A stretch of DNA of 51,705 bases from an uncultured Candidatus Saccharibacteria bacterium (lineage in GTDB: Bacteria; Patescibacteriota; Minisyncoccia; Phycocordibacterales; UBA918). The translations under genes and the position numbers were made by a program. Below, piece by piece: positions 4,773 through 45,158 of this stretch (positions are counted from its first letter, which is position 1; each line of letters starts with the position of its first letter). Below the pieces are notes generated by a model, which did not search any database, was not told the origin of the DNA, and saw nothing but the letters and a program-made list of their open reading frames with translations. The DNA lies in contig CAZFSB010000003.1 in NCBI GenBank assembly GCA_964521645.1, positions 1 through 51,705 of the forward strand, in the 5' to 3' direction.

Positions 4773-4920
4773 TGTGTCGACGGGAGGAATCGGTCACCTT
4801 CGCATCAGTATTTTGTTCGCACGCTCCAAAATACTGTGCTACGCGACCCCGGCGCTCGAATCGTACTCCCTACGGTCCGTGCGATATACTCGCTTCTTTC
4901 GATTCCTCATATCTCCAACA
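4773..4920 (-). ncRNA. tRNA-Met-derived structured element 'X' (tRNA-like 3' end, not a functional cloverleaf)
   Basis: Its last 20 nt (4773-4792) are identical to the tRNA-Met 3' end (4960-4979). It has a 10-bp hairpin at 4806-4836 and is bracketed by two terminator hairpins. Confidence 0.4.
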
Positions 4921-4959
4921 GTCATAAAAAAACCAACACAAGGTTGGTTTTTTTATGAC
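4921..4959. terminator. 17-bp A/T-flanked hairpin after tRNA-Met
   Basis: GTCATAAAAAAACCAAC-ACAAG-GTTGGTTTTTTTATGAC. Confidence 0.7.
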
Positions 4960-4961
4960 TG

Positions 4962-5035
4962 TGTCGACGGGAGGAATCGAACCTCCGACCCCAGCTTTAT
5001 GAGTGCTGTGCTCTAACCGTCTGAGCTACGCCGAC
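4962..5035 (-). tRNA. tRNA-Met, elongator type (anticodon CAU)
   Basis: The reverse strand GTCGGCGTAGCTCAGACGGTTAGAGCACAGCACTCATAAAGCTGGGGTCGGAGGTTCGATTCCTCCCGTCGACA folds as a cloverleaf. Its body resembles E. coli metT rather than fMet or Ile2. Confidence 0.85.
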
Positions 5036-5925: not shown

Positions 5926-6225
5926 TGGTTGCGGGGCCCGGAATCGAACCGGGGTCTGGAGGTTATGCGTACCACTATAACTTTCGTTACTCAAGCCTTG
6001 CTTGATTTGTTGGTCTGGACTATACCTTCATCTGTCTCTTTCGAGCGAAGATGCCTACCATCTAGTCTCTACACCTTCCCGCCACTGGCGGGCTTGGCTC
6101 GGTATTGCCATGTTCTCCTTTTGCAAGCGAACGAAGGTTTCACCGAATTTGGCAAGTGTTCCATAAAACATTTCTGTAGTATGAGCCCTCTTGAGCCTCC
6201 CGAGGTACCTCTCCTCTACCCCGCT
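5926..6225 (-). tRNA. Initiator tRNA-fMet (CAU) interrupted by a group I intron; exons 6225-6194 and 5967-5926; CCA encoded
   Basis: The exons join into a 74-nt cloverleaf, AGCGGGGTAGAGGAGAGGTACCTCGGGAGGCT|CATAACCTCCAGACCCCGGTTCGATTCCGGGCCCCGCAACCA. It has A11:U24 and a 1x72 mismatch, and its 3' end is as in E. coli fMet. Confidence 0.85.
5968..6193 (-). ncRNA. Group I intron (IC3-like), 226 nt, inserted after U33 of tRNA-fMet
   Basis: Contains CAAATTCGGTGAAACC, ATGGCAATACCGAGCCAAGCC, GAAGGTGTAGAGACTAGATGG and GAAGGTATAGTCC core strings. It is preceded by U and ends in G. Confidence 0.8.
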
Positions 6226-6933: not shown

Positions 6934-8361
6934 CTAGAGACCTGTATCGTAGATGCGCTTTCCGATCGCAAACAGTCGCGCGTCGCTACCAAGTGGTCCT
7001 ATGTATTGTACTCCAACCGGAAGCTGTTTACCGCCTTCTTCCACGGTTCCCATGGGGAATGAGAGAGCTGGCACACCCGCGAGGTTGACCGGGACCGTGA
7101 AGATATCCTGGCGATACATTGCGAGTGGATCTTCCTTTTCGCCGATCTTGAAGGCCGGGGTTGGAGCAGTGGGGGTAAGAATGATATCGACCTTCTTAAA
7201 AACGTCTGCTAGTTCCTGACGCATCTTCTTGCGTACCAGTTCAGCTTTTCCGTAGTAGGCGTCGTAGTAACCAGATGAGAGTACGTAGGTACCGAGAAGG
7301 ATGCGGCGTTTCACCTCCTTTCCAAATCCTTCGGCGCGAGTCTTCTCATACACATCGAGCAGATTGTCGCCGTCAGTCGATAGGCCGTAGCGGATACCGT
7401 CGTAGCGAGCGAGGTTGGAAGATACTTCAGCCGGCATCACGATGTAGTACGCCGCGAGTCCCTGTTCGAAGAGCGGCAATTCAATATCAATGACTTCGTG
7501 ACCGGCAGCCTTGAGTTCTTCTATGTGCGCGGAGAATTTTTGCAATACCTCAGCATCGACTCCTTCGGCGAGAAAATGGCGGGGTACTCCGAAGGTGTAT
7601 TTTTCTTTGAGTGGTGCTTCCGGGTACGTATCCTCCGTGATAGTGGTCGCATCCATTTTGTCGAGACCAGCCATGATGTTGTGCACCAGTTCGGCATCAG
7701 CGACCGAATTGGTAAGCGGGCCAGCCTGATCTAGTGAAGAACCCATCGCAATGAGTCCAAAACGCGATACCGCGCCGTAGGTCGGCTTGAAACCGACCAG
7801 CCCACAGTAGCTCGCCGGCTGACGAATCGAACCGCCGGTGTCGGTACCGATAGCGACCGGTACCGCTCCCATCGCGACCGCGGCGGCCGAACCACCTGAA
7901 GAACCGCCCGGTACCCGTGTCGTATCGACCGGGTTCTTGGTCGGACCAAAAGCAGAATTCTCGGTCGATCCACCCATGGCAAATTCGTCCATGTTGGTTG
8001 CACCCACCACGATCGCTCCTGCCGCTTTGAGCCGTTCAACGATCGTTGCGTCGTAGACCGCCACGTAGTTCTCGAGCATCTTGGAGGCAGCGGTCGTTCG
8101 CTTCCCTTTCATAAGAATGTTGTTCTTGAGCGCGATCGGTACACCAAGAAGCGCGGGGGTATCAGCCCCTCTTTCCTTGTAGAGTTGGTCGGCGGCTTTG
8201 GCCGCTTCGCGCGCGTCTTCGTAGACATCGAGAAAGGCGTGGATCTCACCGTCCTTTTCCTTGATCACGGCCAAAGCCGCCTCGACCGCTTCGGTCGGTG
8301 TGAGTGTCCCCGCGATGAACGCGGCGCGCAATTCAGTGACTGTTTTCATACTATTCGCCAA
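6934..8361 (-). CDS. gatA: Glutamyl/aspartyl-tRNA amidotransferase subunit A
   Basis: 475-aa amidase-signature protein (GGSSGGSAAAVA). It overlaps the gatC stop. Confidence 0.95.
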   Translation of the reverse strand: MANSMKTVTELRAAFIAGTLTPTEAVEAALAVIKEKDGEIHAFLDVYEDAREAAKAADQLYKERGADTPALLGVPIALKNNILMKGKRTTAASKMLENYVAVYDATIVERLKAAGAIVVGATNMDEFAMGGSTENSAFGPTKNPVDTTRVPGGSSGGSAAAVAMGAVPVAIGTDTGGSIRQPASYCGLVGFKPTYGAVSRFGLIAMGSSLDQAGPLTNSVADAELVHNIMAGLDKMDATTITEDTYPEAPLKEKYTFGVPRHFLAEGVDAEVLQKFSAHIEELKAAGHEVIDIELPLFEQGLAAYYIVMPAEVSSNLARYDGIRYGLSTDGDNLLDVYEKTRAEGFGKEVKRRILLGTYVLSSGYYDAYYGKAELVRKKMRQELADVFKKVDIILTPTAPTPAFKIGEKEDPLAMYRQDIFTVPVNLAGVPALSFPMGTVEEGGKQLPVGVQYIGPLGSDARLFAIGKRIYDTGL

Positions 8362-8647
8362 CGTCTAGGATCTTCTTCACTGATAAGAATCGACCTTCGG
8401 TCTTCGGCATTTCAGCCAAGATATCCTTGGTATATTGATCAGGCGTATTGATCACCTCATCCTGACGGAAAATATTGTGGCGAGCGCCCACCTGTGGGGC
8501 AGCATCGGCATCATCGGCGGCAATGTCACTAACCGCACTAACATACTCGACAATCGATGACAACTCCCCTTCTAGGTTAGTTAGTTCCTCCTCAGAGAGA
8601 CGGATCCTCGATAGTGTGGCCAAATGGGCGATTTCTTCTCGTTTCAT
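8351..8647 (-). CDS. gatC: Glutamyl/aspartyl-tRNA amidotransferase subunit C
   Basis: Reads MKREEIAHLATLSRIRLSEEELTNLEGELSSIVEYV. The ATG at 8659 in the track lies inside the TATGCT -10 box, so I prefer the second ATG at 8647. Confidence 0.8.
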   Translation of the reverse strand: MKREEIAHLATLSRIRLSEEELTNLEGELSSIVEYVSAVSDIAADDADAAPQVGARHNIFRQDEVINTPDQYTKDILAEMPKTEGRFLSVKKILDVGE

Positions 8648-25920: not shown

Positions 25921-26036
25921 TACTCCCCTCCTTTGAAAAAACGAAACGGCTTATATAGTACTATTGAAATTGATTTTGTCAACCTTTCAAGAAGCTTTTG
26001 GAACAAATAAGCGCCCTAGAAGGGCGCTTATTTGTA

Positions 26037-26168
26037 ATTGCGGAGACGAGAGGATTCGGTCACAAGTCGCTCCCTCCGGTCGCGCTCGCGACCCCAGCTC
26101 GCCGACAAGCACTCCTCGCAAGCTCGTCGTCTTGTATACCGGCTCCGCTTTTCGAATCCTCTCGTCCC
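26037..26168 (-). ncRNA. tRNA-Ser-derived structured element 'Y'
   Basis: 26037-26058 is a 22-nt exact copy of the tRNA-Ser 3' end (26213-26234). 26153-26168 is its inverted copy, which forms a 16-bp closing helix. Internal hairpins are present. Confidence 0.4.
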
Positions 26169-26170
26169 AC

Positions 26171-26217
26171 GCAATAGCAAACCGCCGAAATGCATACGCA
26201 TTTCGGCGGGCTATTGC
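26171..26217. terminator. Compound hairpin after tRNA-Ser
   Basis: GCAATAGC-AAA-CCGCCGAAATGC-ATAC-GCATTTCGGCGG-GCTATTGC. Confidence 0.65.
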
Positions 26218-26303
26218 GGAGACGAGAGGATTCGAACCTCCGAGGGCTTTTAGACCCTGCCTCGTTAGCAGTGAGGTGCTTTCGACCACTCAGCCACGTC
26301 TCC
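26217..26303 (-). tRNA. tRNA-Ser (anticodon GCU), class II
   Basis: The reverse strand is GGAGACGTGGCTGAGTGGTCGAAAGCACCTCACTGCTAACGAGGCAGGGTCTAAAAGCCCTCGGAGGTTCGAATCCTCTCGTCTCCG. It has a long variable arm. Confidence 0.9.
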
Positions 26304-26318
26304 GTATTCTCCGAAATT

Positions 26319-26511
26319 GGAGACGTGGCTGGGGTCGAAAGTTCCTTTCGTCCTCCTTTCGCCTGTTTGCTACGCGAGCACTTCTTGTTTTCTAACTCGC
26401 AAGCTCGTAAGAAAACAATGTCGCGCAACTCACAACGGCGAATCCTGCCTTGACGGCAGGACCGGATGAATTGAGACGCAGGTCTCAATTCATCCACTCA
26501 GCCACGTCTCC
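26319..26511 (-). ncRNA. tRNA-Ser-derived structured element 'Z' in the 5' flank
   Basis: 26494-26511 is an 18-nt copy of the tRNA 5' end (26286-26303). 26319-26331 is its inverted copy. Internal 14-bp and 9-bp hairpins are present. Confidence 0.4.
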
Positions 26512-26698
26512 AAATTTCTCCAAATCCATTTCGATTGGTGCTGGAGAGAATACCATATTGACCAACAGTTACCAAGTCGTTTTTGTAATACCCTGGGTGC
26601 CCTCGATCTGTACTAGACAATATAAAGCCCGTGCTGTATAGTAGCTGCCCATCACAGGTTTGTGTGATGTTTTTGTTCTTTACAATAAAAGGAGAAGT

Positions 26699-27950
26699 TG
26701 TGAGCAACAGCAAAGTGTTGGATAGTCGTATTTTGGCCATGGTCCTTGCCGGTGGCAGAGGCCAGCGTCTTGGCCCTCTGACCGACAATCGTTCGAAGCC
26801 CGCCGTACCGTTTGGCAAGCACCATATCATCAATTTTGCCCTCAGTAACATCATCAACAGCAAGGTCATCGACCACGCCTATGTGCTGACGCAGTACAAG
26901 CAGCAAGGTATCTTGCGCATTCTGGCCTCGATGAACTTCGAAGCCCCGGCCTGGGACAAATTCATTCGTCCTCTACCGGCGCAGCAGCAGATGGGAACCG
27001 ATTGGTATCTCGGCAGTGCGAACGCGGTGTATCAAAACCACGAGTACCTGCTCGACGACCCGGCTGAGTACGTGCTCATTCTGGCCGCCGATCACATCTA
27101 CAAGTTCGACTTCAAGCAATTACTCGAAGACCACATCAACCATGATGCGGACGTGACTGTTTCGGGGATGTTCCTCAGTACTGAGGAAGCAGCCGATACT
27201 TTCGGAGTAATGGAGGTAGATGCTACCGGATCGATCAGGGGCTTCAAAGAAAAACCGCCCCACCCCAAAGCGCATCCCGGCCGACCAGGCGAATGTGTCA
27301 TCTCGCAAGGGATCTACATCTTCAAGAAGTCGGTACTGCTCGATGTCCTGAAAGAAGATCATCTCGATCAAAATTCAGAAAATGACTTTGGGAAGAACAT
27401 CCTACCCAAAATGGTCACCGAAGGGTACAAAGTACACTTCTATGACCACGGAACGAATGTCATCCCGAACGAGAAGATCAACGGCTACTGGCGTGATGTC
27501 GGTACGATCGATGCCTACCACGCTGCCATGATGGACCAGACCCAGTTCAATCCTGACCTAGACCTGTATAACAAGTACTGGCCGGTCATCACGATCAGTG
27601 ATAATCAGCCCATGGCCAAGGTTAACTCACTCTGTGGTCCAAGCGATGAGAATAAGTGTTTTCAATTTTTGGCCGCTGGAGGCTGTGTCTTCACTCACGC
27701 TAAGCTGATATGGCATTCCGTGCTTGGTCGTGAGGTTCGGGTTGAAAAAGGCGCAACCGTCTTGGAATCGATCATCTTCGACCGCGCTGTCATTGGCCGA
27801 AACGCTCGTCTCACCCGCACTATCGTCGAGGAACGTATTACTATCCCCGACAACTGTGTCATTGGCGAAGACATAGAAGCTGATGAAGAACGGGACATTC
27901 TGATCACGAAAGAAGGGATCAGAGTCGTTCACAGCAAGTCAAAACTCTGA
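26699..27950 (+). CDS. glgC: Glucose-1-phosphate adenylyltransferase
   Basis: Contains LAGGRGQRLGPLTDNRSKPAVPFG and a C-terminal left-handed beta-helix. The GTG start at 26699 follows SD AAGGAG. Confidence 0.9.
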
Positions 27951-33369: not shown

Positions 33370-33691
33370 TAAGATCGGTTTGAAGTGGGGAGCACCACAT
33401 CAGGTGGTAAGCTTCTCTAGTCCACAGTATGGACACGGGCCCACCTAAGATATTCACCTCCTTTCAGGATGAAAAGCGTATGGTCATGACGGAACTTCCG
33501 GCGACTGAGCGATTACCCAAAATGAGTTTCATCACATTTCTCCTGAATTGGTTGTAGGTGACGAATGTTCACCCACTTACAGTAATACCGAAAAGTTAGC
33601 AGTTTGTAAATATCCCTCGGTGCAAACGTGGCTCCGGGGAGATTGAGACAACGGGCTGATTGCGCTATAGTGTCACACACCAACCAAATTT

Positions 33692-33726
33692 CCGCCTATA
33701 GCTCAGTTGGTAGAGCGCAGAGCTTA
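33692..33726 (+). pseudogene. Orphan 5' half of tRNA-Ile (ends inside the anticodon)
   Basis: 34/35 identical to 33803-33837. Identity stops after CTTA of the anticodon loop, and no matching 3' half follows. Confidence 0.6.
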
Positions 33727-33802
33727 CAGAATGAGCTGAGTGGAGAAAGAATTTATTCTTTCGAGTCACGAAGCGATATTCTGTATCAATTAAATCTTTT
33801 GT

Positions 33803-33875
33803 CCGCCAATAGCTCAGTTGGTAGAGCGCAGAGCTTATACCTCTGTGGTCCTTGGTTCGAGTCCAAGTTGGCGGA
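33803..33875 (+). tRNA. tRNA-Ile (anticodon UAU)
   Basis: CCGCCAATAGCTCAGTTGGTAGAGCGCAGAGCTTATACCTCTGTGGTCCTTGGTTCGAGTCCAAGTTGGCGGA folds as a cloverleaf. The anticodon loop is CTTATAC. Confidence 0.85.
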
Positions 33876-33892
33876 CAAAAGATTGAATTAGA

Positions 33893-33990
33893 TATACCTC
33901 TGTGGTCCCTGGTTCGCACCACAAGGGTATTTCCGAATTTATAGTCGGCTCATCGCCTCCTTAAATTCTAGGTCAATCCAAGTTGGCGGA
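33893..33990 (+). pseudogene. Orphan 3' half of tRNA-Ile with a 59-nt insertion in the T loop
   Basis: TATACCTCTGTGGTCCCTGGTTCG[59 nt]ATCCAAGTTGGCGGA. A further partial copy follows at 34008-34023. Confidence 0.55.
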
Positions 33991-34078
33991 CAAAAGATTG
34001 AATTAGATATACCCCTGCGGTCCATAAAGAAAAACAGTGCCTGCGCACTGTTTTTCCTTGGATTTTTGAAGCGGTCGG

Positions 34079-41346: not shown

Positions 41347-41753
41347 GGGGATGCTAGGCATCGACGGTCAGTCGTGTCGGATGTGTGCAGTGCCGAAAAC
41401 TGGTAATCAATTCGTTAAAAGGTTCCAACTTGTACGTGCAGACAAAGCACTACCAAGCCCTTACGCTCGCGCGTTTGGGTTCGCTCCCGCATTTGCGTAA
41501 TCTTACGCTCGCCGGATCGATGCTCCGCTCATAAACGTCTCATACGTGAGTCGGGGTAGAATAGACACGAGACTGTGGAGACCTTTGCCGTTGTCATAGG
41601 TTTTCAAGATTGTAACAACTCGAGACCGTAGTGTTTGGTTAATCTTCTAGCTACGGCCTTTAAACAGAAGCAATTCTGACAAAGGCTAACTACGCACTGT
41701 AGACTCACCTTCGCACCCTGATTCGGACGGGAGTTCGATTCTCCCCATCTCCA
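41347..41753 (+). ncRNA. ssrA: tmRNA (SsrA), standard one-piece; tag ADKALPSPYARAFGFAPAFA
   Basis: The 5' GGGGATGCTAGGCATCGACGG pairs with the 3' CATCTCC-A (G3.U70). The T arm is GGGAGTTCGATTCTCCC. The in-frame tag GCA GAC ... GCA TTT GCG TAA runs 41438-41500. Confidence 0.85.
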
Positions 41754-41793
41754 CTCGTAATAATATTAGCGCCATTTGGCGCTTTTATTATTT

Positions 41794-41958
41794 GAGTGGA
41801 GATGAAGAAAACAAACTGCTTTGCTTTCGTCGGGAATTGAACGGCGGAGCGTTGTCATGAGCGCGCTTCCTAGCGCGAGTGACCGCGAGCCGTGTCCCGC
41901 GGTCGTTATGAACGTAGTGAATTACGAACCGACAGGACAATTCCCGTCATCTCCACCA
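41794..41958 (+). ncRNA. tmRNA-end-derived structured element 'W'
   Basis: GAGTGGAGATG (41794-41804) is the inverted copy of the tmRNA 3' end. CATCTCCACCA (41948-41958) is a direct copy. CGGGAATTG pairs with CAATTCCCG as a closing helix. Confidence 0.35.
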
Positions 41959-42054
41959 GACGTAGAAATATGTAGAAGGATATGGAAGTTTACTAAACTA
42001 TTTACTTTTATAATATTTAATGCATAATAAAAGAAACGTTCTGGAGGATTAAAA

Positions 42055-42276
42055 ATGTCTGTAACCCCACTGTTCGACGAAACCGGGAACCACTGCCTTC
42101 GCCCTGTTCAAGGGCCGGAAGAAGGTGTTCTACTTATGGAAAAGCTCGAGGAAGGTACCCTGAAGAGCTGTTACTTGGGTGACTTACTCGAGTTGATCGA
42201 CAAGCTTGAAATACCACTCGAAACTGTCATCAACCTGATTGGTGACGCGCGAGTAATGCTTGGCGAAGACGTCTAA
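42055..42276 (+). CDS. Hypothetical small acidic protein (73 aa) in the low-GC islet
   Basis: SD GGAGGA lies 6 nt before the ATG. Confidence 0.5.
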   Translation: MSVTPLFDETGNHCLRPVQGPEEGVLLMEKLEEGTLKSCYLGDLLELIDKLEIPLETVINLIGDARVMLGEDV

Positions 42277-42457
42277 TCACAACGGTTCCCAATAAGCCGT
42301 CCATCACTCATTAAAGAGTCGGTTGGGTGGCTTTTTTATTTACCACAAACCCACCACCGTTAGAAAATTTGCGGATTCCATTTCAATCAAAGAGGTTTTA
42401 ACTTGGTACAAAGTCTTCCACACTTTAAAAAATACCGTTTCATTGAGCGGTATTTTT

Positions 42458-43261
42458 TTAATTAAATCTGAAAGATTCTACCACCCCATTAAATTCTCGA
42501 ACGAGTTTTTCTTTATCAAAAGAATCAACATCAACTCCTCTTCCTTCTGGAACATCTATCTGCACCATAATCACTCTATTTTCACCAATCAAGACCCCAC
42601 TAAATCTATACATCTCTATGTCCTTAGTTATTTTATTATAAACGATAGTTTTTACTCCAAGCGTTCTATGTCCGTTTATATTATCAATTTCATAGACCAC
42701 GCTTTCTATGTTTGGATCAGTATTCTGTGCCAACATTTCTTCCCACACACTCTTATAATACGATTCAGTATCAGTCGCCTCCAATAGATGACTGAAGTCT
42801 GCAAATCGCATAACTAAATCAAAGTATTGGTTTTGACCAGATTTGCCGACAAGCAATACCTGTGAATCTTCCAGAGCTTTAACATCGAACGTTACATCGT
42901 AAAGTTCTTTTAGTGTTTGAGAGTCATACCCTGAGTCAGAATCAGCTACCACATCAAGGAAATTATGGTCTAACGCCAAATATCCATCAGGAACACTGAA
43001 ACTATATCGTCCAACAATATTTTGGTAAGTTTTCGAAGTCGTGTCAGCTATGTTTTCTTCGGAAAGAGTTTCACTAATTACAACACGTTCGATCTCAACT
43101 ATTTTCTCTGGGGCATACTGATACCCAATCCAACCACCTATGAAAGGTAGAATTACAAAAAGTACCATTGCTAAATATTTGGATAGTGGAGTTACAGTGT
43201 GTAAGCTACTTTTTTCTTGAACCTCTTGCTCAATAGTTTCTTGATTTATCTCAGGTTCCAT
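42458..43261 (-). CDS. Membrane-anchored hypothetical protein in the low-GC islet
   Basis: The start MEPEINQ at 43261 has TATACT 6 nt upstream. It has one TM helix, and the region is visibly AT-rich. Confidence 0.55.
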   Translation of the reverse strand: MEPEINQETIEQEVQEKSSLHTVTPLSKYLAMVLFVILPFIGGWIGYQYAPEKIVEIERVVISETLSEENIADTTSKTYQNIVGRYSFSVPDGYLALDHNFLDVVADSDSGYDSQTLKELYDVTFDVKALEDSQVLLVGKSGQNQYFDLVMRFADFSHLLEATDTESYYKSVWEEMLAQNTDPNIESVVYEIDNINGHRTLGVKTIVYNKITKDIEMYRFSGVLIGENRVIMVQIDVPEGRGVDVDSFDKEKLVREFNGVVESFRFN

Positions 43262-43476
43262 ATCATCAGTATATATTATGTTTAATACTACCTTTGTGTA
43301 CTTAAACACACTGATTGTTAAGTAGTTTCAAGTACTTTTTGAATTGTTGACGAACTGTTGTAATACTCCCAAAAGTTTTTCAGGTACGTCCTTATAGACC
43401 TCAGAACTCGTGAGTTATTTTTGTGATTCTCCCCATCTTCAGCTGCAGAGCGTTGAAAGTGCGGTACACTAGTACT

Positions 43477-43848
43477 ATGACAAAGAAAAAGATCCTCGTT
43501 GTTGAAGATTCGCCATACCTCGCGGAGTCGCTGTCAGACATGCTCGACATCAAGGGGCATGAGGCGATCATTGCTCCCACTGGACGTGATGGTGTGACCA
43601 TGGCCATCGAGCAGCAGCCCGACCTCATTCTCCTCGACATCCGTCTTCCCGACATCGATGGATACGAAGTGTACCGACGCATCAGAGAAAATGACTGGGG
43701 CAAGAATGCCAACATCATGGTGCTGACCGCTTCAGAATCGACCGAGAACATCTCAAAGAATATCGACCTTCCCAAAGAAGACGTCCTCTTCAAACCAGAA
43801 TGGAGCGTCACTGACCTGCTCGCTAAAATCGAGGAGAAACTCTCTTAA
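43477..43848 (+). CDS. Single-domain response regulator (receiver only)
   Basis: Contains KILVVEDS and ILLDIRLPDIDG. TACACT lies 6 nt upstream of the ATG. Confidence 0.85.
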   Translation: MTKKKILVVEDSPYLAESLSDMLDIKGHEAIIAPTGRDGVTMAIEQQPDLILLDIRLPDIDGYEVYRRIRENDWGKNANIMVLTASESTENISKNIDLPKEDVLFKPEWSVTDLLAKIEEKLS

Positions 43849-45158
43849 TTCTTTCCTTTTTCTTCAGGCAATTCAAGCGGGAGAATAACTTCAAATGTCG
43901 TGCCGATGTTTTCGGTGGTCGTAAATGATATCTGTCCCTTCAGGACCGAAACCGCCTCGTGCACGATGTAGAGACCAAGTCCGGTTCCGTCAGGAACATT
44001 GCGTACCGCGTTTGCCGCCCGGAAGAGCTTCGAGAAGATCTGGTCTTGGTCTTCGGCCGGAATACCCATACCGTTGTCAGCCACGGTGATGATGATGCTG
44101 TCGTCCTTGCGACCGAAGCCAAGGTGGATGGTCCCCTTCTCTCTCGTGTACTTGGTGGCGTTGGAATACAGGTTGGTCACGATCATGCGCATGAGGTTCG
44201 GATCAGTGATGATCGTGTTAACTGATTCGTCATAGAAGGTTTTGACCGTCAGTCCTTTCTGCTGTACCCGGGGCGCTTGTTCAGACATGATGTCTTCAAA
44301 CAGCTCAGACAGTGATACTGTCGTGTATTCGGCCTGGAAGGTACCTAGTTCAAAGCGCGATACTCGTAGGAAATCGTCTACCAGAAGCGCCATTCGTTTT
44401 ATGCTCACGAGCAGGCGGTCGATGTATTTCTGTTGACGCTCGGTCAGTGAATCTGGGTTATCCATGAGGAGCAATTCCGCGCTCCACTTCATCCCCGCGA
44501 TCGGCGTTCGCAATTGGTGAGAGGCCAGCGAGACGAATTCCGACTTGGCGTCCTCGGCGCGTTTTTGCTTGGTGATGTCAACCAGGGTCATCAGGCCGAT
44601 CTTCTCTCCAGCCACATCAGCTGAGCCAAAGAGTGAGAGCAGAGCCCACGCCTCGCGGTGGTCAGGGCGCTTCAAACTCACCATCTCGTCGCTGACCGGT
44701 ACGCCATTTTGAAACTTCTCGATCAAAAAATCGAGGTGCTCTAACTCATCGCACTGCAGTCGGGCGAACACATTGATACCTTTCACCTTGGTCTGGCTGA
44801 CACCGAGCATACGCACGGCAGAAGTATTGGCCGATTTGATGTGCCCCTCAAGGTCGATTATCAGGTACGGTACCGGACTGTTCTTATACAGCTGAATGTA
44901 CAGCTCCTCTGAGGTGACCGCTAGGTCCATCGCTACATTCTTTTTTATTTCTTCGGAGGTCTCTGTCGAGTGAGCGATGTCATACACATTCTTGGCAATG
45001 AACACACAGCAGAGAAACGCCGTAAGGAAGAGCAAGCCGCCCAGATCGATCTCTGAAAAATCATAGAAAACAGCCAAGAGCACCACGATGCCAAATGAGA
45101 TGGTGAATACCAACAGCGAGTGGATCAGTGGTTTTTTACTTTGACCGGAAGAAGACAT
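43845..45158 (-). CDS. Sensor histidine kinase (2 TM, PAS-like, HisKA, HATPase_c)
   Basis: H-box SHQLRTP, with N, G1 and G2 boxes (DNGMGI, GTGLGL). Confidence 0.9.
   Translation of the reverse strand: MSSSGQSKKPLIHSLLVFTISFGIVVLLAVFYDFSEIDLGGLLFLTAFLCCVFIAKNVYDIAHSTETSEEIKKNVAMDLAVTSEELYIQLYKNSPVPYLIIDLEGHIKSANTSAVRMLGVSQTKVKGINVFARLQCDELEHLDFLIEKFQNGVPVSDEMVSLKRPDHREAWALLSLFGSADVAGEKIGLMTLVDITKQKRAEDAKSEFVSLASHQLRTPIAGMKWSAELLLMDNPDSLTERQQKYIDRLLVSIKRMALLVDDFLRVSRFELGTFQAEYTTVSLSELFEDIMSEQAPRVQQKGLTVKTFYDESVNTIITDPNLMRMIVTNLYSNATKYTREKGTIHLGFGRKDDSIIITVADNGMGIPAEDQDQIFSKLFRAANAVRNVPDGTGLGLYIVHEAVSVLKGQISFTTTENIGTTFEVILPLELPEEKGKN

Follow-up and report, generated by a model that had tools for sequence, protein, structure and literature searches.

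Small structured elements bearing copied tRNA ends flank a tRNA-Ser gene of a Candidatus Saccharibacteria bacterium and may be regenerating insertions

How does a tRNA gene come to lie among copies of its own two ends? The question is raised by a tRNA-Ser(GCT) gene in a 51,705-nucleotide (nt) stretch of DNA from an uncultured Candidatus Saccharibacteria bacterium (GenBank assembly GCA_964521645.1, contig CAZFSB010000003.1, forward strand), which is referred to here, at its full length, as the window. GlgC comparison places the organism near Candidatus Elulimicrobium. The intact gene lies between a GGDEF gene and glgC and is bordered on its 3′ side by a segment termed Y and on its 5′ side by a segment termed Z (Table 1). 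A preliminary description had presented these segments as a symmetric nest of tRNA end copies that could sequester the ends of the precursor tRNA. Our analysis favours, on balance, a different explanation, in which two small, structured, non-coding mobile elements, Y and Z, inserted independently of each other into the tRNA-Ser gene. Y is a member of a large and apparently undescribed structured family that is found after many tRNA and transfer-messenger RNA (tmRNA) genes, Z, lodged in the D-loop where the gene originally began, is an element of another type, and the nest of repeats is not peculiar to tRNA-Ser.

The repeats were confirmed, with small corrections. A repeat search showed that 26037-26058 is an exact copy of the tRNA 3′ end (22/22 positions identical to 26213-26234), spanning the gene from C56 to its end together with 3-4 nt of trailer. 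On the 5′ side, the direct copy at 26494-26511 is identical to the tRNA at 18/18 positions, and the inverted copy is exact over 13/13 positions (26319-26331) and continues imperfectly to 26346, covering ~30 nt of the tRNA 5′ half. The inverted 3′ copy, previously placed at 26153-26168, is present, but the stretch that matches the tRNA (26221-26236) at 16/16 positions is 26151-26166. Its match to the outer 3′ copy is 14/14 (26153-26166 with 26045-26058), and imperfect complementarity extends to 26175. Of the 16 base pairs (bp) claimed for a helix at 26153-26168, 14 are perfect, the other two being G·T and G–C. The perfect 14-bp stem reported in Z (26464-26477 with 26482-26495) and the hairpin GGTCGC-GAGC-GCGACC reported in Y (26078-26093) were both recovered. 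As a control for chance, the two 300-nt flanks were shuffled 2000 times and scored for the longest exact tRNA match in either orientation. The longest chance match was 12 nt (6/2000 shuffles) and none reached 13 nt, compared with the observed 19, 16, 18 and 13 nt. The same architecture recurs in independent assemblies (Logan, JGI and ENA), which shows that the repeats are real, and the arms co-vary with the tRNA; the probability that they are chance matches or assembly artefacts is negligible.

On the 3′ side of the gene, an almost perfect palindrome of 82 nt (26153-26234) is built from the end of the tRNA and the inverted arm; its tip is the terminator hairpin at 26182-26209, with a TTTGCTATTG tail on the minus strand. 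The inner part of the inverted arm (A′) also pairs with the outer copy, and the resulting helix, P1, closes a three-way junction. On the 5′ side, a 15-nt loop separates the inverted copy (B′) from the tRNA 5′ end. A 13-mer (ACGAGCUUGCGAG on the sense strand) had been noted as common to Y and Z. It is indeed present at 26115-26127, in the hairpin loop of helix P2 of Y, and at 26396-26408, and nowhere else in the window; however, it is an instance of a recurrent loop motif, GAGC-N2-4-GCGA, which recurs in both element types, and does not constitute a private link. A hairpin with a CUGC loop is a second module common to both element types.

Three copies of Y lie in the window, after tRNA-Ser, tRNA-Met and tmRNA. 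The tRNA-Met copy also has an inverted arm, in the same layout as at tRNA-Ser, and in the tmRNA copy the inverted arm is split by a CUGC-loop hairpin (41794-41805 plus 41831-41839). When the elements at tRNA-Ser and tRNA-Met were aligned with their counterparts in two relatives, an invariant GUGACC junction and common body motifs emerged. Metagenomes were then scanned with the pattern GGTTCRANTCC-N(155-185)-GTGACCRANTCC; because the loci were chosen by a pattern derived from Y, the resulting counts are no survey. In the loci examined there were at least 124 matches, two of them in the relatives L006 and L008. In at least 56 of the 124, including two of the window copies, GUGAC is directly followed by at least 18 nt of the neighbouring tRNA 3′ end, starting at C56, and among the matches listed such downstream copies occur at tRNAs of at least 17 amino-acid types. 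The direct copies are spaced 176 nt apart in Y and 208 nt apart in Z; the spacing in the family, 168-197 nt, is the only range that the pattern allowed.

Read in the sense of the tRNA, the core of Y is (U)UCGAA-AGNCGGAG-(hairpin)-CGAGN′CGGGG-UCGCG-(hairpin)-YGUGAC, followed by C56. RNAalifold, run on an independent MAFFT alignment, returned a three-way junction with compensatory changes in 14/21 pairs. A covariance model built from 30 Y copies was run over the ~0.83 Mb of contigs fetched for Y and matched the tRNA-Ser copy at 26051-26162 with 75.9 bits. Among the matches listed, it found at least about 125 copies: 99 lie no more than 130 nt downstream of a tRNA or tmRNA gene on the same strand, 3 lie upstream and 23 are ‘orphans’, mostly at contig edges or in later units of tRNA-Y-Y-Y arrays. 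Across 93 aligned copies, 94.9% of cells were paired, compared with 26-48% when the partners were slid, and double changes were seen in 19/21 core pairs of this model-fitted alignment; the independent alignment points the same way. The middle pair of the P2 base covaries (CG in 32, GC in 29 and AU in 22 sequences). One P3 pair is G·U in 40 sequences and G–C in 41, a distribution which indicates that the fold belongs to the tRNA-sense strand. The Y core is a real structure.

The placement of the core is not limited to the 3′ side of intact genes. In locus L056, an array of four tRNA genes has a Y after every tRNA. The core also occurs within D-arm fragments upstream of intact genes for tRNA-Lys (L056) and tRNA-Ser (L068), where it ends in GUGAC followed by C, and at position 26 of a tRNA-Gln fragment (L084), where it ends in GUGAC.

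The arms of Y follow the tRNA beside which they lie. In L006 and L008, the T-stem sequence GAGAGGA of the tRNA is replaced by GCAGGGA, and the same change is found in both Y arms. At loci with unlike direct copies, it is the functional inner end that the inverted arm matches (20/20 versus 11/20 positions in L067, 20 versus 15 in L059 and 20 versus 16 in L094). This tracking of the functional end indicates that inner copy and arm belong together, forming a single unit with the terminator, whereas the outer copy stands apart as a fragment that decays. Outer copies fall into two length classes, one of 7-8 nt, which just closes the junction, and one of 19-30 nt, with a mode of 19 (C56-C74); the outer copy is kept only as far as closure of P1 requires. 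CCA follows the discriminator in 23/55 outer copies and 14/55 inner copies. A non-CCA inner copy is paired with a CCA-bearing outer copy in 11 loci, and the reverse is seen in 2; the Y-less relative L001 encodes CCA. The Y arms do form a helix of T-stem, acceptor 3′ strand and complement, as had been proposed when the structure was likened to a stacked acceptor/T stem. However, this helix also pairs the discriminator and trailer, which marks it as an inverted copy and not a true minihelix, whose 12 bp of acceptor and T stem would leave discriminator and CCA unpaired: in the window and in L006 it runs through T-loop positions C56-U60, the discriminator and C74 or the trailer, and the outer copy in the window carries CAA, not CCA. 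A tRNA mimic with a free NCCA end was rejected because the discriminator is paired too.

Z was followed in the same relatives. All five Z-bearing lineages retain the outer 5′ copy beside the promoter together with the adjacent hairpin, the stem of which is kept through compensatory changes in five relatives. The inverted 5′ copy is variable, being absent from L006 and reduced to the D-arm in L001. In L140, which has no Z, the same promoter leads into the tRNA, and AAATTT precedes +1 just as it precedes the outer copy in the window. L140 is therefore an empty site for Z, from which it follows that the outer copy marks the original gene start and that Z lies in the D-loop after G18/G19. The putative promoter is kept in L001, L005, L006, L008 and L140; a consensus scan did not report one. 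Elements of the Z type (hairpin-CCGGUC-hairpin) also occur upstream of tRNA-Tyr and tRNA-Glu in other contigs, and a Z profile matches the relatives as well as elements at other tRNAs.

These relatives were reached through GlgC homologues; exact-protein look-ups of two flanking proteins gave no match. Among them, Y and Z at tRNA-Ser vary independently. The window and L006 have both; L140 has Y only; L001/L004 and L005 have Z only; L008 has Z and a different Y subtype; and the more distant L142 has a tRNA-Ser gene with neither. The genes downstream of tRNA-Ser vary as well. When the window is compared with L140, the two Y copies agree at 98.3% of positions over 176 nt and the two tRNAs at 100%, against an identity of 78.4% for glgC DNA and 71% for the promoter region; beyond the outer copy there is no alignment. 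In L005, which has no Y, the gene that adjoins tRNA-Ser on its 3′ side (602-1933) encodes a large serine recombinase with Resolvase, Recombinase and Zn_ribbon_recom domains.

In the genomic islands catalogued by Islander, an intact tRNA or tmRNA gene is accompanied by a cognate fragment in the same orientation, a 3′ fragment lying downstream or a 5′ fragment upstream (PMC4383910). In such integration, the element brings a gene fragment that restores the target, and its far end is recognized by the fragment that was displaced; of the islands tallied, 3760 had 3′ fragments and 159 had 5′ fragments (PMC4383910). The tRNA-Ser locus has a 22-nt 3′ fragment downstream, in Y, and an 18-nt 5′ fragment upstream, in Z, both in the orientation of the tRNA. 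Because this configuration of gene and fragment is the published signature of integration into tRNA genes, we read Y and Z as insertions, and infer that mobility, not duplication and loss, accounts for them and that the element brings the inner copy with it.

On this reading, Y (~176 nt) would have entered the T-loop between nt 55 and C56, bringing C56-C74 and a terminator, and Z (~190 nt) would have entered the D-loop after G18/G19, bringing a short leader and nt 1-18. The last ~19 nt of the present tRNA (26216-26234) would have been supplied by Y and the first 18 nt (26286-26303) by Z. Since each element would carry a copy of the segment that it displaces, the tRNA gene would stay intact. 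The displaced ends would remain as the outer direct repeats. The outer 3′ copy would be the former 3′ fragment of the gene, now displaced and lying beside the old terminator, for which the hairpin at 26003-26035, after this copy, is the candidate; the outer 5′ copy would be the former start of the gene, likewise displaced and still next to the old promoter. The inverted copy would be the second strand of an element hairpin that locks the carried tRNA segment against its complement and so rebuilds the target duplex in a folded single strand. A circular intermediate of ~180 nt, of DNA or RNA, might then recombine at that duplex and integrate by a Campbell-type event, and by analogy with other folded sites the hairpin could, speculatively, be the single-strand attachment site of such a circle. 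The three-way-junction core (P2/P3 and the GUGAC end) may be needed for the reaction or for a partner protein; that it is a ribozyme or a protein-binding module is likewise speculative. Spread between orthologous tRNA genes of related lineages could speculatively proceed through homologous recombination, which alone may suffice, the two arms being provided by the conserved tRNA body and the outer copy.

A bolder version of the insertion reading is offered tentatively, as a possibility that we consider rather less probable than not: Y, together with Z, could represent an unrecognized class of minimal mobile elements of ~110-200 nt that home to the T- and D-loops of tRNA and tmRNA genes and carry a hairpin-locked replacement end. 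In such a class, the core would possibly be a ribozyme or an RNA or single-stranded DNA partner of a recombinase. If this were true, these would be the smallest site-specific integrative elements known, almost every tRNA gene would be occupied in some small-genome bacteria, and the hairpin-locked replacement end would let an essential single-copy gene survive. Large mobile islands classically land in tRNA genes, and island-style regeneration of a gene by a gene-free element raises the question of what catalyses the movement. Y is abundant, with 3 copies in 52 kb and a copy after nearly every tRNA in some contigs, and its conserved RNA or DNA fold is new to Rfam 15 and to the searchable literature. 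Rearrangement hot spots at the tRNA loci of these small genomes may be due to the elements, and caution is warranted in annotation, as tRNA fragments, spurious open reading frames and ‘terminators’ near tRNA genes may belong to them.

Several observations weigh against insertion. In ~45% of copies the outer copy is only 7-8 nt long, so that insertion would have to be followed by repeated truncation to the part that closes the junction. No copy has a linked recombinase, transposase or reverse transcriptase, and neither excised nor circular forms were seen. Selection on a functional RNA, and not recent transfer, could account for the very high similarity of Y in the window and in L140. The pattern of G·U pairs in the core suggests RNA; unlike the core helices, the palindrome shows no excess of G·U and no strand bias among its mismatches (14 G·U versus 22 A·C). 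The metagenomic loci were selected with a pattern built from Y, and the covariance-model alignment is fitted to the structure. Y and Z are, to our knowledge, far smaller than any known integrative element, and their inverted arm is unexplained by ordinary integrase biology.

The strongest rival explanation makes Y a vertically inherited gene for a stable structured RNA, the closing helix and 3′ tail of which copy the T-stem, the acceptor strand and sometimes the CCA of the tRNA. Such an RNA would be made by read-through from the tRNA promoter and act in trans or in cis, and its patchy distribution would be due to duplication and loss. The strong conservation of sequence and structure, the covariation and the sense-strand G·U pairs agree with an RNA gene, as do the constant orientation and position behind tRNAs, the order of outer copy and then own terminator, the conservation of Y far above that of neighbouring sequence and the retention of a minimal 7-8-bp closing helix after loss of the remaining outer copy. 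However, a terminator precedes Y, and the arm matches the functional end at 20/20 positions even where the outer copy has shrunk to 8 nt, a match for which an RNA closed by P1 alone would have no need. A tandem array of mixed subtypes stands at a single tRNA (L086), and subtypes differ at an orthologous tRNA (L006 versus L008). The same core lies inside D-arm fragments of tRNA pseudo-copies, and the closing helix also pairs the discriminator and C74, unlike a tRNA mimic. We consider the RNA gene unlikely.

Two further explanations seem to us improbable. One, which takes up the idea of sequestered ends from the preliminary description, would make the flanks a cis-regulatory leader and trailer, in which inverted arms sequester the tRNA ends and outer copies release them for RNase P and RNase Z. 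The minimum-free-energy fold of a 546-nt stretch does pair both inverted arms with the tRNA ends and abolishes the cloverleaf (z = -18.5); moreover, the 5′ outer copy would be transcribed before the inverted arm and could neutralize it co-transcriptionally, and the hairpin beside this copy is kept by compensatory changes. A processing device specific to tRNA-Ser was nevertheless not borne out, since the Y family stands behind many unrelated tRNAs and tmRNA, Y and Z vary independently, and the identical tRNA occurs in relatives without Y (L001 and L005), without Z (L140) or without the 5′ inverted arm (L006). The terminator between the tRNA and the 3′ inverted arm would also normally leave that arm outside the tRNA transcript. 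We give equally little credence to the idea that Y and Z are scars of integrase-borne prophages or islands, with the core as what is left of the attP flanks. A regenerated gene with a displaced fragment is the island signature, and T-loop crossovers are known (PMC4383910); the serine recombinase gene of L005 lies beside the tRNA 3′ side, and the tRNA-Ile gene of the window shows more ordinary fragment patterns. Against this stand more than 100 copies with the same compact size and the same two ends, a uniformity that makes independent deletions implausible. No larger interval between tRNA and fragment was present in the fetched loci, arrays apart, a single true match came from 2.9 million viral contigs and none from phage or plasmid records, and the arm sites of integrases are not expected to show hairpin covariation.

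Y and Z share features with several known systems and differ from each of them. Like islands, they have a split and regenerated target, a far-end fragment, tmRNA among their targets and tandem arrays (tRNA-Y-Y-Y arrays exist). Attachment sites of islands lie in the anticodon loop, the T-loop or the T/acceptor junction (PMC4383910); the Y crossover falls in the T-loop, with identity from C56, and the D-loop used by Z is not a listed site. Islander retains candidates of 2-200 kb and filters out those below 2 kb or without an integrase (tyrosine recombinase) (PMC4383910). By contrast, Y and Z measure 176 and 208 nt, and their intervals of 154 and 190 nt contain no integrase gene. Y and Z thus differ from islands in being ~180 nt long and gene-free, in the palindrome that locks the carried tRNA segment with its complement and in a three-way-junction core with RNA-like covariation.

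Cis-mobilizable elements (CIMEs) are att-flanked remnants that have lost recombination genes and are kilobase-sized with varied content. Y is similarly non-autonomous, with direct repeats at a tRNA 3′ end, and differs in being a compact family of uniform, conserved structure. The attP(+) site of the CTX phage, recombined by XerCD, and the attC sites of integrons are folded single-strand recombination sites that target dif and attI, in which two inverted target-like copies ~50-100 nt apart fold to a duplex on one strand. The likeness to Y, which extends to mechanism by analogy only, lies in a direct-inverted-direct locus after integration and in structure conserved above sequence; the palindrome of carried end, terminator and complement is present, with mismatches that lack strand bias. 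Y differs in targeting a tRNA loop, and the G·U pairs of its core fit RNA at least as well as single-stranded DNA. Miniature inverted-repeat transposable elements (MITEs), REP/BIME, Correia, RUP and PATE elements are small, non-coding, hairpin-rich, multi-copy and patchy among relatives, and Y and Z resemble them in being small, non-coding and rich in hairpins, in occurring in more than one copy and in their patchiness. There are 3 Y copies in 51.7 kb, and one at almost every tRNA of L056; no autonomous relative was seen among the genome fragments. MITEs have terminal inverted repeats at both ends, a short target-site duplication and a related autonomous transposon. Unlike them, Y and Z are not enclosed by terminal inverted repeats: Y has an inverted pair at one end only, the other end being P3 and GUGAC, its ‘duplication’ is a functional gene end of 19-30 nt, the elements are specific to tRNA loops, and the arms follow the target tRNA. 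Non-canonical introns and split tRNAs of archaea have insertions at the D-loop, position 26 and the T-loop, and share with Y and Z these positions and the pairing of element with exon sequence; here, however, an intact tRNA gene always stands beside the fragment, a terminator lies inside the ‘intron’, no bulge-helix-bulge motif was seen, though none was sought, and the hosts are bacteria. ROOL and GOLLD are likewise conserved, structured, RNA-like elements near tRNA genes, and Y differs from them in being much smaller, in sharing sequence with the neighbouring tRNA and in having no match in Rfam 15.

Searches for a known identity gave the following results. Rfam 15 returned no credible match on Y or Z in the window and nine other loci (gathering thresholds, E <= 1 or 0.1), its matches being limited to tRNA, tmRNA and group I intron models; among them was none to the self-cleaving ribozyme classes hammerhead, twister, pistol, hatchet and HDV-like. 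A hammerhead-type core was also rejected by eye, as junction strands of AA(A), GGG(G) and none do not fit. Full-text literature searches found no description of such elements, returning only general work on tRNA-gene integration. Among 2.9 million viral contigs there were 10 matches to the pattern, nine of them chance matches inside open reading frames; the sole true one, L130, lies among cellular genes. A strong Y core used as a BLAST query had no match among 50,697 phage and 72,556 plasmid records. On these grounds Y was judged not to be a common sequence of phages or plasmids and was rejected as a remnant of a phage attP. No integrase was found within the elements or close to them, and a search of the fetched loci for larger islands beside tRNAs with a Y came back empty. 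Reading of the sequences also disposed of three other ideas: a primer-binding site would pair with a mature CCA end, and the inverted arm does not; a TnpB-like scaffold-plus-guide would cut the regenerated gene as well, as it keeps the target; and an ordinary target-site duplication leaves the inverted arm unexplained.

Table 1. Features of the tRNA-Ser locus and of the two other Y copies in the window
Feature	Position	Strand	Basis or description
tRNA-Ser(GCT), intact	26216-26303	minus	ARAGORN; Rfam tRNA model, 55.8 bits
Element Y	26037-26215		
Element Z	26304-26511		
Outer bidirectional terminator-like hairpin	26003-26035	.	15-bp perfect inverted repeat, 3-nt loop, T-rich runs on both strands
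Outer (distal) 3′ copy, C56-C74 + trailer	26037-26058	minus	22/22 identity
Y core helix P3 (GGUCGCG...YGUGACC)	26058-26093	minus	covariance model, covariation
Invariant GUGAC abutting C56 of outer copy	26059-26063	minus	
Y core helix P2	26096-26149	minus	GNC/GN′C base, GGA/GA internal loop, variable hairpin
Inverted arm A′	26153-26175	minus	complementary to tRNA 3′ end + trailer
Intrinsic-terminator-like hairpin directly 3′ of tRNA	26182-26209	minus	12-bp stem, 8 G-C pairs
Inverted copy B′ of tRNA positions 1-30	26319-26346	minus	13 nt exact, remainder imperfect
Z body	26347-26463	minus	hairpins 26385-26418 (loop = 13-mer 26396-26408) and 26444-26460, CCGGUC junction
Conserved CUGC-loop hairpin after outer 5′ copy, left end of Z	26464-26495	minus	14-bp stem
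Outer 5′ copy, tRNA positions 1-18	26494-26511	minus	18/18 identity
Putative promoter TTGGTA-17 nt incl. TGN-TATTCT	26547-26575	minus	read from sequence
Y copy 2, downstream of tRNA-Met (4961-5035)	4773-4979	minus	covariance model, 45.6 bits
Y copy 2, parts	outer 3′ copy 4773-4792 (20 nt); core 4785-4909; terminator palindrome 4918-4962	minus	
Y copy 3, downstream of tmRNA (41347-41756)	41765-41959	plus	covariance model, 49.3 bits
Y copy 3, parts	terminator 41765-41792; core 41830-41945; CCA-bearing outer 3′ copy 41939-41959	plus	

Some smaller observations concern the elements and their surroundings. A low-GC stretch (42000-44000; 39-43% compared with ~52% elsewhere) begins right after the tmRNA Y. 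An island beside tmRNA was considered and rejected, as there is no integrase-like open reading frame after this Y and no second copy of the tmRNA end. The open reading frames listed inside the Y and Z intervals overlap the tRNA and the repeats and are without support. Spurious reading frames that cross elements and tRNA (26631-26700 in the window, 1970-2212 in L006) are a hazard for annotation, and an 80-amino-acid gene call in L006 starts at a Shine–Dalgarno-like AAAGGAGGA-N5-ATG within Z.

In L056, the array at 7050-8480 (minus strand) comprises tRNA-Cys, tRNA-Leu-UAA, tRNA-Lys and tRNA-Leu-UAG, with an extra Y core in the D-arm fragment upstream of tRNA-Lys, and the P3 helices of different Y units in this contig are alike. 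A second body type or extra module, with the consensus GGUGAGAAcuGCCAGUGGCaguUCGCAAG, was found in L018, L029, L044, L084 (2006-2085), L101 (4400-4460), L105, L109, L114 and L119. This GGUGAGAAcuGCCAGUGGCaguUCGCAAG module is joined to the same ...GGGGUCGC...GUGAC end and lies within tRNA pseudo-copies in some loci. In L140, ARAGORN called a tRNA-Ser with anticodon ACT at 658-745, which is followed by its own Y (468-583, 60.9 bits).

Finally, two other tRNA loci of the window are unusual. The tRNA-Ile(TAT) gene at 33803-33876 (plus strand) lies amid partial copies of itself (33662-34023): its leader and 5′ half recur at 33662-33726, the segment from anticodon loop to T-loop at 33893-33916, and the segment from T-loop to 3′ end, with trailer, at 33977-34023. 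An insert of about 60 nt follows GGTTCG, and the Y covariance model does not match there; the copies may belong to another kind of element or be the scar of an ordinary integration. At 5930-6225 (minus strand) lies a tRNA gene with a group I intron (RF00028 at 6001-6203, 54 bits) and no ARAGORN call. From its acceptor, GCGGGGU...CCCCGCA, and its anticodon region, CUCAAGA, this gene probably encodes tRNA-Leu.

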